A stretch of 64,000 nucleotides of DNA from Clostridia bacterium (GTDB lineage: Bacteria > Bacillota > Clostridia > Oscillospirales > Acutalibacteraceae): contig JAFSPP010000011.1 of assembly GCA_017451425.1 (NCBI GenBank), forward strand, positions 26,510-90,509. The letters are read 5' to 3'. Positions within the stretch are counted from its first letter, which is position 1. Each line of letters opens with the position of its first letter. Under the pieces are notes generated by a model. The model saw nothing but the letters and a program-made list of their open reading frames with translations, did no database searches and was not told the DNA's origin. Both the position numbers and the translations under genes were made by a program. Positions 43,156 to 50,952 of the stretch are shown in pieces.

Positions 43156-43923
43156 ATGGATTATAAGATCAGACCTTTTACCACAAAGAGCGAAGAGGGC
43201 AACACAATAAGAGGAATTATTGTATCGCCCAAGAACTTTACGGGAAAACTTCCCGCCATTGTCATGTCACATGAGTTCTGCGCGAACATGTGGACAACTT
43301 TCAGATACGCCAGAAAAGTCGTAAATGACGGCTATGTATGCTTCTGCTACGACTTTACCCGCTCCGGTTCCGGTATCTCCGGCGGCAGCTCAATCGGCAT
43401 GAGTGCCGTCCAGGAGTCCAGAGATGTAATCTCCGTTCTGCGCTATGCTCAGTCCTGCGACTTCGTCGACAAGGATGATATCACACTCTGGGGCTGTTCA
43501 CAGGGCGGTATGGCAACTGCACTTGCCGCTCCTGAAGTCGAAGACGAGATTAAGAGAATAATACTTTACTATCCGGCATTGTCCATCTGTGATGACGCCA
43601 GAAAAGGTTCAATGATAACCGCGCGTTTTGACCCTCAGAATCCGCCCGAGAAATTCTGGTGCGCAATCGTTCATGTAGCAAGCAATTACTGTACTGACGT
43701 AATTGACCTTGACCCGTATGAGCAGATCTGTAAGTTTAAAAAGCCGGTACTTTTAATCCACGGCACGAAGGACCATATCGTAAATGTATCCTATTCAAGA
43801 GAAGCTGCGGAGAAATACCCGTGCTGCGAGTATCACGAATTCCCGGCTGAGCATGTCTGGGTAGGCGGCGGTGCCAAGAAGGCAGTCGCATTCACACGTG
43901 ATTTTCTGAGAAATAATAAGTGA
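43156..43923 (+). CDS. Alpha/beta hydrolase, cinnamoyl/feruloyl-esterase-like
   Basis: Nucleophile elbow GCSQGG, the later HGTKDHIV segment and a C-terminal His context. The overall order resembles the Lactobacillus/Butyrivibrio cinnamoyl esterase family as I recall it. Paralog of 50188-50952. Confidence 0.6.
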   Translation: MDYKIRPFTTKSEEGNTIRGIIVSPKNFTGKLPAIVMSHEFCANMWTTFRYARKVVNDGYVCFCYDFTRSGSGISGGSSIGMSAVQESRDVISVLRYAQSCDFVDKDDITLWGCSQGGMATALAAPEVEDEIKRIILYYPALSICDDARKGSMITARFDPQNPPEKFWCAIVHVASNYCTDVIDLDPYEQICKFKKPVLLIHGTKDHIVNVSYSREAAEKYPCCEYHEFPAEHVWVGGGAKKAVAFTRDFLRNNK

Positions 43924-43930
43924 GGTAATT

Positions 43931-45544
43931 ATGGCAAAATTCGTAACGGCGGCTCAGGCTGCTGAACTTATTGAAGACTGCGCGACTCTCGCCGTCGCCG
44001 GAATGGGACTTTCCGGCTGGGCGGAGGAGATAGCCTGCGCCATCCGTGACCGGTATAAAGAGACCGGTCATCCGAAAGGTATCAACTTGAAGCAGGCCTC
44101 GGCTCTCGGCGACTGGGGTCACGGCAACAAGTTCGTGGGCTGGGATCGCGTAAAACGCGACGAGCCCGATACCGAGCACGGCGCGCGTGGTGCGACACGC
44201 CTCGGCGAGGCCGGACCCGGCCTCGTCACCAAATGGACCAGCGCGCATATCGGCTCGGCCTTCTCGCTCTGCGACCAGGCACGTGCCGAGCAGCTCGAGA
44301 GCTACTGCCTGCCGCAGGGAGTAATAGTCAACCTGTGGCGGGAGATAGCGGCAGGCCGTCCCGGTCTTATAACAAAGACCGGACTCGGCACATTTGTCGA
44401 CCCCCGCGTAGAGGGCGGCCGTATGAATGCGTCCGCAAAGGACGAAATAGTCAAGGTTGTTGAATTCGGAGGAGAGGAGTATCTCTACTATCCCGGATTT
44501 TCAATAGATGTTGCAATACTTCGCGGCACTATAGCCGATGAGAACGGTAATATCTCTTTCGCTCACGAGTCCGTAATCAATGAGGGACTTGCGGTTGCTG
44601 AAGCCACAAAGAACACAGGCGGTATCGTCATTGTTCAGGTCGAATACATCGCAAAGAAAGAGACATTGAATCCCAAGGAAGTAAAGATTCCGGGCGTACT
44701 TGTCGACTATGTCGTAAAAGCGAACGATCCCATGTCATGTTGGCAGGCAGAAGGCGACTACTGGCAGCCTTCCTACTCCGGCCAGATTAAAATTCCCCTC
44801 GGTGAGATCAAACCGATTCCTTTCGACGAGAGAAAAGTAATCTGCCGTCGCTGCGCCATGGAGCTTAAAGCCGGCAATCTCATAAACCTCGGAGTGGGAA
44901 TGCCTGCCGACATATCGAAAGTTGTCGCTGAAGAAGGACAGCTTGAGAAAGTCACAATGAGTACCGAGTCAGGTATGGTGGGCGGTGTGCCTTCGGCTCT
45001 GCCGAGCTTCGGAAGCGCATACAACCCGGAAGCCATAATGACTCCGAATGACATGTTTGACCTCATTTCCGGAGGCGGCCTTGACGTCACCTGCCTCGGA
45101 ATAGGAGAGGTCGATAGGGACGGAAACAACAATGTCTCCCGCATGGGCAAGCGTCTTACCGGCCCCGGCGGATTTATAGACATAACATCTTCAACGAAAA
45201 AGGTTATCTTTGCCGGAACATTCACCGGTCACGCTGAGTATGAAATAGGCGACGGCAGGATAAAGATCACAAAGGAAGGCGACATTAAGAAGTTTGTAAA
45301 TACTGTCGGACAGATTACTTTTGCCGGTCAGTACTCTCCTGATACCCAGGAGGTCTTCTATGTGACCGAGAGAGCCGTTTTCAAGCTCATAGACAAGAAG
45401 ATGACCCTTATAGAGATTGCGCCCGGTATAGACCTCGAGAAGGACATTCTGGCGCAGATGGATTTTGAACCTGCAATCGCTTCTGATTTAAAGGAGATGG
45501 ATCCTGCAATATTCCGTGAAACCTGGGGAGGACTCACATTATGA
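43931..45544 (+). CDS. Family I acyl-CoA:carboxylate CoA-transferase, fused alpha-beta (Pct/YdiF-like)
   Basis: 537 aa and collinear with propionate CoA-transferase-type enzymes: ...ETGHPKGI..., GLGTFVDPR, YYPGF..DVAILRGT.ADENGN, and the catalytic Glu context MSTESGMVGG. Confidence 0.8.
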   Translation: MAKFVTAAQAAELIEDCATLAVAGMGLSGWAEEIACAIRDRYKETGHPKGINLKQASALGDWGHGNKFVGWDRVKRDEPDTEHGARGATRLGEAGPGLVTKWTSAHIGSAFSLCDQARAEQLESYCLPQGVIVNLWREIAAGRPGLITKTGLGTFVDPRVEGGRMNASAKDEIVKVVEFGGEEYLYYPGFSIDVAILRGTIADENGNISFAHESVINEGLAVAEATKNTGGIVIVQVEYIAKKETLNPKEVKIPGVLVDYVVKANDPMSCWQAEGDYWQPSYSGQIKIPLGEIKPIPFDERKVICRRCAMELKAGNLINLGVGMPADISKVVAEEGQLEKVTMSTESGMVGGVPSALPSFGSAYNPEAIMTPNDMFDLISGGGLDVTCLGIGEVDRDGNNNVSRMGKRLTGPGGFIDITSSTKKVIFAGTFTGHAEYEIGDGRIKITKEGDIKKFVNTVGQITFAGQYSPDTQEVFYVTERAVFKLIDKKMTLIEIAPGIDLEKDILAQMDFEPAIASDLKEMDPAIFRETWGGLTL

Positions 45545-46683
45545 TACTTGATGAGAAACGCCTGCTTATGAGAAAGCTCTGCCGCGAGTTCGCCGAGAAC
45601 GAATTCACAGATGAACTTCTCGACAGGCTTGAGGAGACGGGCGAATTCGACTGGGACATCTTTCATAAGATGGGACAGTACGGTTTCTGCGGAGTGAAGA
45701 TTCCGAAGGAATACGGCGGACAGGGCGGAGACTCGCTCGACTATGTCATCATGGTTGAGGAGTTCGCAAAAGTCTCACCCGTGCTTTCGCTCTACGCAAA
45801 CACTTCAAACTCACTCGGCGGCGGACCTCTTATGATCTGCGGCAATGAGGAACAGAAGGCAAAATACCTGGGCGATGTAGCCTCGGGTAAAAAGATAATG
45901 ATATTCTGTCTCACGGAGCCGGGGGCCGGTTCCGACGCGGGCGGCACAATAACAACCGCGAAAGAGGACGGGGACTACTTCATCTTGAATGGCCGCAAGA
46001 CCTTTGCGTCCGGCGCACCTATAGCTGACTATGCCTGCGTTCTTGCAAAGACGGATACGTCTCTCAGGGGCTCAAAAGGCATTTCCATGTTTATTGTTGA
46101 TATGAAGCTTCCGGGTGTTAACTGCGGCAAGCCGGAACACAAGATGGGCATTGTCGGTTACCCGACATCCGACGTCATCTTCGAGGACGTCAGGGTCCAT
46201 AAGGACGATATGGTCGGCAAGCGCGACAAGGGCTTTGGCGCCGCCATGGCGACCCTCGATGGCGGCCGTCTCGGTATAGCCGCCCAGTCTCTCGGTATAG
46301 CCGAGGGCGCATATGCCGAAGCGCTCAAGTATGCGAAAGAGCGCAAACAGTTCGGACAGCCGATTGCAAACTTCCAGGCAATCAGTTTCATGCTCGCTGA
46401 CATGGCGACCGAGATTGAGGCCGCGAGAGAGCTTATCTATTCAACTGCGATAAAGAAGGACGCGGGAGATCCGGAGGCATCAAAGCTCTGCGCTATGTCC
46501 AAACTCTTCGCATCAGAGATGTGTAACAGAGTGGCATACAAGGCCGTTCAGATTCACGGCGGCTACGGCTACATCAAAGAGTACAAAGTCGAGCGTTTCT
46601 ACAGAGACGCTCGTATAACCTCGCTTTACGAGGGCACATCGCAGATACAACAGCTCGTAATCGCAAATACGATTTTAAGATAG
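45541..46683 (+). CDS. Acyl-CoA dehydrogenase family enoyl-CoA reductase (Bcd/CarC-like)
   Basis: 380 aa. FCLTEPGAGSDAG, the GR KTFASG-type motif, QIHGGYGY and the catalytic Glu in LYEGTSQIQ. An ATGA overlap links it to the transferase gene. Confidence 0.9.
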   Translation: MILDEKRLLMRKLCREFAENEFTDELLDRLEETGEFDWDIFHKMGQYGFCGVKIPKEYGGQGGDSLDYVIMVEEFAKVSPVLSLYANTSNSLGGGPLMICGNEEQKAKYLGDVASGKKIMIFCLTEPGAGSDAGGTITTAKEDGDYFILNGRKTFASGAPIADYACVLAKTDTSLRGSKGISMFIVDMKLPGVNCGKPEHKMGIVGYPTSDVIFEDVRVHKDDMVGKRDKGFGAAMATLDGGRLGIAAQSLGIAEGAYAEALKYAKERKQFGQPIANFQAISFMLADMATEIEAARELIYSTAIKKDAGDPEASKLCAMSKLFASEMCNRVAYKAVQIHGGYGYIKEYKVERFYRDARITSLYEGTSQIQQLVIANTILR

Positions 46684-46693
46684 GAGGGCACAT

Positions 46694-47494
46694 ATGAAAT
46701 ACATAGTTTGCGTAAAACAGGTGCCCGACACTCAGGGCAAGGTTGCGGTAAAAGAGGATGGTACAATGGACCGTTCCAAGATGGCAGCCATTATAAATCC
46801 GGATGACCTCAATGCCGTTGAGGCAGCGCTTACGCTGAAGGACAGCAATCCCGATGCAAAGGTCGTCGTAGTCACAATGGGACCTCCGCCGGCTGCGGGT
46901 ATGCTCCATGAGCTCCTCGCCATGGGTGCTGATGAGGCCGTTCTGGTATCCGGCCGTGAATTCGGCGGCTCGGACACATTCGCCACATCACAGATTTTAG
47001 CCGGCGCCATATCGCATATCGGCATTGAAGCAGATGATGTCATCTTCTGCGGCCGCCAGGCGATAGACGGCGATACGGCGCAGGTAGGACCGCAGATTGC
47101 CGAGAAACTCGGCATACCGCAGATCTCCTACGCCGCCGACATTGAACAAAACGGCAATACGCTTAAAGTAAAAAGAGTCCTTGAGGACGGCTATATGACC
47201 ATAGAGGCTGACACACCCTGTCTTATAACCTGCATCAAGGAACTCAATAAACCGAGATATATGACGGTTTCCGGCATTCTGGAATTTGATAAGAAGCCGT
47301 ACTCTGTCTTTGACTATGAAACACTCAAGGATGAGCCCCTCATAGAAGCTGACACAATCGGTCTTAAGGGCTCACCGACAAACGTATACAAGTCATTCTC
47401 ACCGCCGCAGAAGGCTCCGGGCAGAATGATTGCCGCCAATGAGAGCGGCGTGAAAGAGCTGGCGCAGGAACTTGCCGCCAAGCATATCATATAA
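46694..47494 (+). CDS. etfB: Electron transfer flavoprotein beta subunit
   Basis: MKYIVCVKQVPD, INPDDLNAVEAAL, GRQAIDGDTAQVGPQIAEKLGIPQ. Confidence 0.9.
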   Translation: MKYIVCVKQVPDTQGKVAVKEDGTMDRSKMAAIINPDDLNAVEAALTLKDSNPDAKVVVVTMGPPPAAGMLHELLAMGADEAVLVSGREFGGSDTFATSQILAGAISHIGIEADDVIFCGRQAIDGDTAQVGPQIAEKLGIPQISYAADIEQNGNTLKVKRVLEDGYMTIEADTPCLITCIKELNKPRYMTVSGILEFDKKPYSVFDYETLKDEPLIEADTIGLKGSPTNVYKSFSPPQKAPGRMIAANESGVKELAQELAAKHII

Positions 47495-47507: not shown

Positions 47508-48602
47508 ATGTATGACTGCACTGACATAAAGTCCTTCTCAGGCGTTATGGTCTTCTGTGAGGCCCGTGAAGGCAAAATCAATACCACATCCTTCGAACTC
47601 CTTTCTGAAGGAAGAAAACTTGCCGATGACCTCGGTACGGAACTTTCCGGACTGCTTATAGGCAAAGACGTGAAAGGCCTCGCCGGACAGATCGGCGGAT
47701 ACGGTGCCGACAAAGTATATGTTGTCGAGTCACCGCTTCTTGAAACTTATACCACTGACGCTTATACTAAAGTCATAAGCGATGTTGTTCACGAGAAAAA
47801 GCCCGAGATACTTCTCATAGGCGCCACGAACATAGGCCGTGATCTCGGCCCGCGCTGCGCCGCAAGGCTGCACACCGGCCTCACAGCCGATGCCACGCAC
47901 CTCGACATTGACACGGGCAAGTATCTGGACTTCCTTCGTGAATCCTCGACAATCGATGTCGATTCGATGAAATGGGATATGGAGGACAAGGGCCTTAAAA
48001 TGACCCGTCCCGCTTTCGGCGGTCACCTTATGGCGACAATTATCTGCCCGCGTTTCCGCCCGCAGATGTCAACCGTCAGACCCGGTGTTTTGAAATGCGC
48101 CGAGTTTGATCAGGCAAAGGCTGATTCCGTGGTCATCGAGGAACTGAAGACCGACCTTTCGGATGCCGACCTTAAGACACGTGTTCTTGAGGTTGTCAAA
48201 GAGACAAAGGAGATAGTCGATCTCCTCGGCGCCGAAGTCATAGTCTCAGTCGGACAGGGTATTGCAAAGGATCCCGAAAAAGGTATCGCTCTCGCATCGG
48301 AACTCGCCGAGGTACTCGGCGGAGGAGTCGTCGGCGCATCCCGCGCCGCAGTTGACGCCGGTTTCATCTCGGGCGACCATCAGGTCGGCCAGACGGGCAA
48401 GACCGTCAGGCCGCATATATAAGTCGCCCTCGGTATCTCCGGCGCCATCCAGCATAAGGCGGGCATGCAGGACTCCGAGTATATTATCGCCGTCAACAAT
48501 TCGGAGACGGCCCCGATATTTGAAGTCGCGGACTACGGTATCTGCGGAGACCTCTATACCGTTGTTCCCATGCTTATTAATGCGGTGAAAGAAGTGAAAT
48601 AG
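47508..48602 (+). pseudogene. etfA: Electron transfer flavoprotein alpha subunit interrupted by an in-frame TAA (48420-48422)
   Basis: RBS AGGAGG precedes ATG 47508. The frame reads ...[79 protein letters not shown] in a single reading frame. The stop sits where conserved EtfA has Tyr ([15 protein letters not shown]). The next gene's ATG abuts the downstream TAG. Confidence 0.8.
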
Positions 48603-50159
48603 ATGATTACACTCCGTAACATTACAATCGATCAGGCTCTCCGTGAGGCTGTCGAAAAGTACCCGGACAACAAGGCTATTGTCTACGGTGATGAATGCTA
48701 CACCTACCGGGAATTTGATGAAGCCGTCACAAGAATGGCATCCGGTCTTATCGACTGTGGTGCCAAAAAAGGCGACAGGGTAGGTGTCTGGTGCGATACA
48801 TCGCCCAAGGCCATTATTGCCATGTTCGCCTGTTTCAGGGCCGGCTTTGTGCTGACAATGTTCAACACCTCACTGCTTCATCAGGAGATGATGGAGCTTA
48901 TGAATGCGATCGATATCAAGCAGCTGATTATCGGTGAGGGTTACAAGAACGTGGATTTCATAAAGGAGTCCGAACTCTTTTATGACAATGTTCCCGCACT
49001 GCAGAATATTCTCTACATCGGCAACGACATGACGAGAAGAGAGTATAAGAATATTGCCAGGTACAGGGGTACGGCTGACAATCTTGTTTCGGAGTTTTCA
49101 GAGAAGGTCACTCCCGAAGATGAAGCCTGTATTCTCTTCACCAGCGGCACGACTCATACTGCAAAGCCTGTTGTGACAACCAATTACAGCAGGGTAAACA
49201 GCGCACTCTTGCAGGGAGAGGACATTAAAACCACCGAAAACGATGTTTTCTGTATTACGATGCCGATCTTCCACTGCTTCAGCCTTAATGTCAACATTAT
49301 GGCACCTCTTTTTAACGGCGCATGTATCTGTATCCCGAAATCAAGGCATACGGGTGACGTAATTGAAGCGGTAGTAAAGCATAAATGTACCGTCATGAGC
49401 TCTGTACCTTCTTTCTACCACGCCCTGATAGTGAAACAGGATCTTTCAAAATTCGATATATCAAGCCTCCGTGTAGGCTTTATAGGAGGCAGCGCCTGTC
49501 CTCCCGGACTTTTCAAAGAGATTGAGGAAGCCCTGGGCTTCACGCTTCTCTCGAGTTTCGGCCAGACTGAGGCCACTGCAGGCATAACCGTTGCGGGCCT
49601 CGATGATTCCCTTGAGGAACGCGCAACGACACTGGGTCATTTCATGGATTATATTCAGTACAAATTCACCGATGAAGGTGAGATATGCATCAAGGGATAC
49701 AACGTAATGAAGGGCTATTTCAACGATCCTGAGGCTACGGCAAGAGTTATCGACAGCGAGGGATGGCTTCATACCGGAGATACCGGTTATCTCAATGAGA
49801 ACGGAAATCTCGTCTATACCGGCAGGTGCAAGGAGATCATCATCCGCGGCGGCGAAAACATCAGCCCGATGGAGATTGAGAAGGTCATGGCCGATGACGG
49901 AAGAATTAGAGCCGTCAAGGCAATTGGCGTACCCGACAGCCACTATGGTGAGGAGGTTGCTCTCTGTGTTGTAAAGGAGGAGGGTGCTTCAATCACCGAA
50001 AATGATATCCGTGCCATCTACAGAATGAAACTCGCGGATTTCAAGAATCCCAAGTACATCTATTTCTTCAACGAGCTTCCCGAAAATGAATTCGGAAAGG
50101 TAAACATAGAGGAACTCAGAAAAGAAACGGCATATAAGCTCGGCGATTACCGCGAATAG
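48603..50159 (+). CDS. AMP-forming acyl-CoA ligase (ANL superfamily)
   Basis: FTSGTTHTAKPV, FGQTEAT, HTGDTGYLNENGNLVYTGRCKEIIIRGGENISPMEIE and a C-terminal GKV. Confidence 0.85.
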   Translation: MITLRNITIDQALREAVEKYPDNKAIVYGDECYTYREFDEAVTRMASGLIDCGAKKGDRVGVWCDTSPKAIIAMFACFRAGFVLTMFNTSLLHQEMMELMNAIDIKQLIIGEGYKNVDFIKESELFYDNVPALQNILYIGNDMTRREYKNIARYRGTADNLVSEFSEKVTPEDEACILFTSGTTHTAKPVVTTNYSRVNSALLQGEDIKTTENDVFCITMPIFHCFSLNVNIMAPLFNGACICIPKSRHTGDVIEAVVKHKCTVMSSVPSFYHALIVKQDLSKFDISSLRVGFIGGSACPPGLFKEIEEALGFTLLSSFGQTEATAGITVAGLDDSLEERATTLGHFMDYIQYKFTDEGEICIKGYNVMKGYFNDPEATARVIDSEGWLHTGDTGYLNENGNLVYTGRCKEIIIRGGENISPMEIEKVMADDGRIRAVKAIGVPDSHYGEEVALCVVKEEGASITENDIRAIYRMKLADFKNPKYIYFFNELPENEFGKVNIEELRKETAYKLGDYRE

Positions 50160-50187: not shown

Positions 50188-50952
50188 ATGGCAATTAAAA
50201 TCCGACCTTTTAAGATTAAAAGCAGCGGTGTCCGCCTGTGCGGATACAGCTTAGTGCCGAAAGACGCTGACGGGAAGCTTCCTGCTGTAATCGTAAGTCA
50301 CGGTTTCGGCAGCAATATGCTCATCTCATACTCATATGCCAGGGTCTTCGTTGATATGGGCTATGCGGCCTTCTGTTACGATTTCCCGAATTCGGGAAGT
50401 AGTATCTTCTCCGGAGGCTCAGGCACCCGGATGAGCGTCATAGACAACAAGGAAGACCTGAAGAATGTTCTTGAGTATGTCCGCTCACTTGATTTTGTTG
50501 ACACAGACCGCATAATACTTGCCGGCTGTTCACAGGGCGGAATGGTCACTGCGCTGACGGCACCCGAGGTTGAAGACAGGATTGAGAGAATCGTTCTTTA
50601 TTACCCCGCTCTCTGTATACCTGACGATGCCCGCGCGGGCAATGTAATCGGTACGAAGATAGATCCGGATAACATACCGGATACCTTCCGCGCAATCGTT
50701 TTCAAGGTCGGAAAGAAGTATCCGCTTGATTCGATGACGCTTGACCCTTACAGGGAAATCTGCGGTTTTAAGAAACCGGTATTCATAGTCCACGGCAAGG
50801 AAGATAAGATAGTGAACATCGATTATTCCAGACGGGCCGCGGAACTTTATCCGGACTGCAGGCTTGTTGAGGTGCACGGTGATCACGGATTCATTTTGCG
50901 GGGCGGACGTGCATCAAAAAAGGCAACGAGAAAGTATCTTTCGGAAATTTAA
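50188..50952 (+). CDS. Alpha/beta hydrolase, cinnamoyl/feruloyl-esterase-like (paralog of 43156-43923)
   Basis: Same length class and collinear with its paralog: KIRPF, LPAVIVSHGF, CYDFPNSGSS, AGCSQGGMVTALTAPEVEDRIERIVLYYPAL and FIVHGKEDKIVN. The DNA around the GCSQGG codons is near-identical to the paralog. Confidence 0.6.
   Translation: MAIKIRPFKIKSSGVRLCGYSLVPKDADGKLPAVIVSHGFGSNMLISYSYARVFVDMGYAAFCYDFPNSGSSIFSGGSGTRMSVIDNKEDLKNVLEYVRSLDFVDTDRIILAGCSQGGMVTALTAPEVEDRIERIVLYYPALCIPDDARAGNVIGTKIDPDNIPDTFRAIVFKVGKKYPLDSMTLDPYREICGFKKPVFIVHGKEDKIVNIDYSRRAAELYPDCRLVEVHGDHGFILRGGRASKKATRKYLSEI

Follow-up and report, generated by a model that had tools for sequence, protein, structure and literature searches.

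Ordinary nonsense-mutation pseudogenes and strain-level loss-of-function alleles are already known, and they are the closest described kind to the etfA gene analyzed here. The likeness lies in a single substitution that cuts short, by a premature stop, an etfA that is otherwise intact and recently selected, in sister strains that all carry the intact allele, and in an operon that is patchy in the genus and family. The differences are that this etfA carries no second lesion and no decay, and that its TAA is known from the assembly alone.

For the encoded protein, two described systems are close. The first is the Clostridium propionicum-type acryloyl-CoA reductase, in which AcrA is the large ETF subunit. 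EtfA of the present locus, read through its stop, scores 644.9 bits against the AcrA model NF042970 (cut-off, 600) and is full length on both sides. EtfB falls just below its own cut-off (468.8 bits against 475 for NF042971), and the neighboring acyl-CoA dehydrogenase, at 406.5 bits, is well short of the 640 set for AcrC (NF042972), which leaves EtfA as the only one of the three AcrABC subunits above its equivalog cut-off. With its dehydrogenase scoring so low against AcrC, the complex is unlikely to be a true acryloyl-CoA reductase; the interruption of etfA is a further difference from the C. propionicum-type system. The second is the caffeyl-CoA reductase-Etf complex of Acetobacterium woodii, whose CarE subunit (PDB 6FAH chain A) is the best solved-structure match of EtfA (E value, 1.6e-103) and has Tyr at the codon aligned to the TAA. 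The Car system also shares the operon logic of CoA-transferase, ligase, ACAD, EtfB, and EtfA. However, the EtfA alignment begins at CarE residue 64, and the extra N-terminal segment of CarE (approximately 60 residues) is missing here. An enoyl-CoA reductase of the Acr/Car type, working with an ETF, would fit these family matches.

The operon and its interrupted etfA

The window, which is the whole 64,000-nucleotide stretch of DNA analyzed, lies within a contig (C48) of a 1.48-Mb, 66-contig genome with an estimated completeness of 94.9%. A divergent PadR regulator is followed by a co-directional series of genes for a DUF3237 protein, an alpha/beta hydrolase, a CoA-transferase, an acyl-CoA dehydrogenase, EtfB, EtfA, an AMP-forming ligase, a second hydrolase, a 411-aa protein without an assigned family, and an MFS transporter. 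The accessory locus looks like one for hydroxycinnamate- or acrylate-type reduction. The two alpha/beta hydrolases (43156-43923 and 50188-50952) are paralogues that flank the CoA/redox core, and both faintly or weakly match families of acetyl-xylan and feruloyl esterases (AXE1 and BD-FAE). The features that bear on etfA are as follows.

45541..46683, + strand: acyl-CoA dehydrogenase / enoyl-CoA reductase, likely ETF client
46694..47494, + strand: etfB, intact, with a TAA stop; protein identical in five other public contigs
47508..48419, + strand: 5' part of etfA, 304 codons, with the ETF domain at the N terminus and the greater part of the FAD-binding ETF_alpha domain
48414..48416, + strand: etfA codon 303, CAT (His); CGT (Arg) in some strains
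48420..48422, + strand: premature TAA at codon 305; TAC (Tyr) in all conspecific strains; C to A at 48422
48423..48599, + strand: 3' part of etfA, 59 codons in frame, conserved FAD-binding segment and C-terminal helix
48600..48602, + strand: native etfA stop TAG; the ligase ATG follows without a gap
48603..50159, + strand: AMP-forming acyl-CoA ligase, its ATG abutting the etfA stop

Single-frame translation of etfA (47508-48602), whose ATG at 47508 is preceded by a GGAGG ribosome-binding site approximately 9 nt upstream, gives 304 residues ending in ...GQTGKTVRPHI, the TAA at codon 305, a further 59 residues, and then the TAG. The letters around the premature stop (approximately 48411-48455) read ...CCG CAT ATA TAA GTC GCC CTC GGT ATC TCC GGC GCC ATC CAG CAT.... 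When the stop is written as X, the resulting protein of 364 residues matches PF01012 at residues 13-211 (E value, 9.3e-47), PF00766 (ETF_alpha) at residues 239-321 (profile positions 2-81 of 81; E value, 4.5e-27), a match that spans position 305, and the NCBIfam model NF042970 at residues 5-362 (profile positions 2-359 of 360). The 304-aa open frame by itself would lack the last quarter of PF00766. Because both the Pfam and the NCBIfam profiles align across the TAA, this is clearly one real gene cut by one stop and not a pair of ORFs juxtaposed by chance. The two-domain composition of the EtfA/FixB family (PF01012 plus PF00766) is present once the TAA is read as X, but the TAA precedes the FAD-binding segment and no uninterrupted frame runs through it. 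As written, etfA is a pseudogene of the EtfA/FixB family, and it is the sole etfA detected in the genome, which holds a single EtfA match.

The premature stop aligns with the Tyr of the motif P-x-I/L-Y-V/I-A-x-G-I-S-G-A-I-Q-H, and the same Tyr is present in the structures 6FAH and 5OL2. The codon aligned to the stop is TAT or TAC in all 11 orthologues from related species, which comprise eight congeners and two genomes of other families in the order, one of them with two copies; every homologue that reaches the site has Tyr. As the orthologues are all TAT or TAC and etfA contains no indel, a single third-position change from TAC to TAA suffices to account for the disruption. These results bear out much of an earlier sequence-only reading of this DNA, which had located the in-frame TAA, the TAG, and the next ATG at the positions listed above, placed the stop on a conserved Tyr, explained it by one TAY-to-TAA change, and described the segment 3' of it as intact and conserved.

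Translation of the interrupted gene would end at codon 304, and the product would be 60 residues short at its C terminus (Tyr305 and the 59 that follow it); with them would go the C-terminal helix and the G-I-S-G-A-I-Q-H stretch of the domain that binds FAD. The Gln-His of S-G-A-I-Q-H and nearby residues contact FAD in ETF structures. With a product ending at residue 304 and the FAD-contacting residues lying beyond it, alpha-FAD should not bind, and the truncated EtfA is predicted to be inactive. The EtfAB-dependent acyl-CoA dehydrogenase/enoyl-CoA reductase of the accessory operon would then be disabled. The abutting ligase gene may be translationally coupled to etfA, and a premature stop 180 nt upstream could lower its translation.

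Strain distribution of the premature stop

Five public conspecific contigs encode an EtfB identical to that of the window; assemblies of the species include GCA_016287255.1, GCA_016287955.1, and the ENA assembly ERZ28653690. The four that reach the site (L015 to L018) have a full-length etfA, called with 364 or 351 residues, and TAC at codon 305; the conspecific contig alignments contain only substitutions and no indels inside etfA. The 90% protein cluster of EtfA has 15 members, among which Tyr is found in 13 of the 13 reaching the site; no member stops at residue 304. The cluster contains RPRIY as well as RPHIY variants, and His303, which also occurs in intact genes (RPHIY), is by this comparison an ordinary natural polymorphism unlinked to the defect.

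The nearest strain protein (P0042) differs from the read-through EtfA of the window only by A269V and Y305*. Its contig (L020), which belongs to an ENA assembly of another ruminant sample, is 99.7% identical to the window over 9.1 kb and has the local haplotype of the window, including His303 and 48455T, yet it carries TAC at the site. The comparison with sister strains that the sequence-only reading had proposed thus returned TAC throughout, in L015 to L018 and in L020. Logan contigs from four sequencing runs were also compared with the window. Those of runs X1, X2, and X3 (two studies), approximately 99% identical to it, represent other strains with C at 48422 (TAC), together with G at 48415 and C at 48455, and in run X6 a contig gap (48408-48456) extends across the stop site.

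Altogether, a stop at this site was seen in none of the 11 orthologues from related species, the 5 conspecific contigs, and the 13 cluster members. An exact look-up of the 304-aa product, with ATG and TTG starts, in a collection of 15 billion proteins found it absent. A 61-nt query, in which all 31-mers include the TAA, matched no indexed public run, a weak negative in that only three words were sampled. Sequence flanking the stop occurs in 20 indexed runs, the best with 0.91 of the sampled words. The public runs in which near-identical sequence occurs are gut metagenomes of goats, cattle, and other animals, and the near-identical proteins carry only the name of "Clostridia bacterium" MAG proteins. 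Because the TAA allele is absent from all public collections searched and the nearest strain has TAC, the C-to-A change at 48422 is, on these comparisons, a singleton on the terminal branch of one MAG.

The strain of the window is a distinct one: comparison with L015 to L019 gives 43 SNPs in 6.8 kb that are specific to its lineage and arranged in patches; 33 of them are synonymous, and most are common to L020. This pattern is the mark of real, selected, and possibly recombined strain divergence. The 59 codons 3' of the stop differ from those of L015 to L019 by one synonymous change (48455), with no indel and no decay, and the operon was under strong purifying selection until very recently. Since the older SNPs are mostly synonymous and no decay follows the stop, the TAA is either very recent or artefactual. 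When L020 is added to the comparison, four window-only changes remain in 9.1 kb; three alter a protein, and two are G:C-to-T:A transversions.

43979, G to T: CoA-transferase G17C
48313, C to T: EtfA A269V
48422, C to A: EtfA Y305*
49679, C to T: synonymous

The SNP patches that the window has in common with L020 (43855-43890, 44407-44422, 46236-46314, 48284-48455, and 49256-49334) are short and mostly synonymous. Their arrangement suggests within-species recombination tracts and a divergence that would not be clock-like. The junction of etfA and the ligase gene (48600-48603) is itself polymorphic: the stop abuts the ATG in the window, L015, and L018, and one extra base is found in L016, L017, and L020.

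Mutation or assembly error

The best explanation of the TAA, which we hold with somewhat better than even confidence, is a real and very recent strain-level nonsense mutation in etfA, a C-to-A change at 48422 that would have converted Tyr305 (TAC) to TAA in the lineage or subpopulation behind this MAG. The competing explanation is that the A at 48422 is a sequencing, assembly, or consensus error in a low-coverage or error-bearing metagenome stretch, the true codon being TAC and etfA intact; this is a substantial possibility, which we place short of an even chance. A short-read assembler works only with k-mers that occur in the reads, and the A must therefore have been among them. The independent assembly L020 confirms the remainder of the local haplotype, and as the haplotype of the window is mostly shared with L020, the assembly reflects a real haplotype and not noise. 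Internal stops were found in none of 54 other domain matches of the genome (38 ABC_tran and 16 Radical_SAM), which indicates that the assembly is not riddled with errors. This sample of domain matches replaced a genome-wide scan for interrupted genes by codon-usage coding potential and Shine-Dalgarno sites, which was noisy (antisense frames scored well) and whose filter either dropped etfA itself or gave 407 candidates. A DNA search located the operon in 8 of 17 congeneric species, and a protein search in 5 of 150 genera sampled from the family; for an operon so accessory and patchy, a strain-level loss is biologically plausible. From these lines of evidence we infer that the A at 48422 is present in the DNA of the cells.

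Several observations point the other way. In the public data reached, no other assembly has the TAA, and etfA is otherwise free of decay. A singleton allele, the lack of decay after the stop, and past purifying selection all weigh against a real mutation, the latter two being equally expected for an error. The three protein changes and two G:C-to-T:A transversions of the window-only set are also compatible with sequencing or library artefacts, but about half of the terminal changes of L020 itself are likewise non-synonymous, and the pattern does not point specifically to error. The position of the stop favors an error as well, for it lies between two stretches of 30 to 31 nt (48378-48407 and 48424-48454) that are exactly shared with the etfA of other organisms. 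The Logan contigs of X1, X2, and X6 break or branch at these shared stretches, which marks a hard spot for de Bruijn assemblers.

The other organisms whose etfA genes are identical over these two stretches occur in the same metagenomes. A chimeric path through such a gene between the shared 30-mers was considered as the cause of the stop and rejected, because the homologous gene would need to carry the same in-frame stop, and His303 and 48455T are confirmed in L020.

Whether mutation or error, the event is ordinary, and the evidence of unusual biology is nil. The sequence-only reading had left three options for the stop, namely, error, recent inactivation, and read-through; the first two remain, whereas conserved or programmed read-through does not survive the finding that the TAA is private even relative to a 99.7% identical strain.

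The TAA has little importance beyond annotation. If the nonsense mutation is real, the strain has just lost its only detected ETF, together with the enoyl-CoA reductase branch of the accessory locus: it would have no functional EtfAB, the ETF-dependent dehydrogenase/reductase would be inactive, and there could be polarity on the ligase. It would constitute one small case in which a strain within a rumen population of Clostridia has lost a metabolic capacity. If the A is an error, the genome, which is the one representative of its species in the GTDB-based set searched, would wrongly seem to be without a functional EtfA, and the pathway would be absent from metabolic reconstructions built on it. 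Either way, functional inference on the operon should use the intact allele of L015 to L018 and L020.

Stop-codon usage and tRNA genes

Of the 753 ORFs of the genome that are 300 codons or longer, 432 (57%) end in TAA, as does the adjacent etfB (47492-47494). The sequence-only reading had taken TAA to be a normal terminator and reassignment to be unlikely, and the genome-wide usage agrees. A change of the genetic code, by which TAA would specify an amino acid in this organism, has the in-frame TAA itself as its one point in favor; against it stand the termination of most long ORFs by TAA, the lack of internal stops in the 54 domain matches, and the TAC of close relatives at the site. Stop-codon usage effectively refutes it, and we give it practically no credence.

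It is also very improbable that etfA is still functional through read-through of the TAA, by a near-cognate tRNA (Tyr, Gln, or Lys) or a suppressor tRNA, or through assembly of the two pieces. The 59 downstream codons, perfectly kept in frame, would fit this explanation, but their preservation is fully explained by recency. The stop is conserved in no relative, which argues against a programmed mechanism under selection, and in a genome that relies mainly on TAA for termination, efficient suppression would do harm throughout. Bacteria read through UAA spontaneously at a rate of roughly 1e-4 to 1e-3. It is also implausible that the C-terminal piece is translated on its own: the ATG at 48465, where the frame first offers a start 3' of the stop, has a weak AAGG upstream and would yield a peptide of 45 residues without G-I-S-G-A-I-Q-H. 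In a related explanation, which we find scarcely credible, the TAA allele is real and tolerated, with low-level near-cognate read-through, as by third-position mispairing of tRNA-Tyr, restoring the native Tyr; the strain would then have a leaky, down-tuned ETF instead of a null, a natural hypomorph of an electron-bifurcating-type reductase in a rumen bacterium.

Suppressor tRNA genes, a search for which the sequence-only reading had suggested, did not materialize: ARAGORN recovered 33 tRNAs and one tmRNA, with no UUA anticodon among them, in a set that is incomplete and in which a suppressor is to that extent formally possible. Reassignment, suppression, and programmed read-through are each very unlikely because TAA is the main terminator, no suppressor tRNA turned up, and no orthologue shares the stop. 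The tRNA set of the MAG contains no tRNA for Asp, Glu, Cys, Phe, or Ile. It includes a tRNA-Pro whose anticodon, AGG, is uncommon in bacteria, and the tmRNA encodes the tag DEKPVLKAA.
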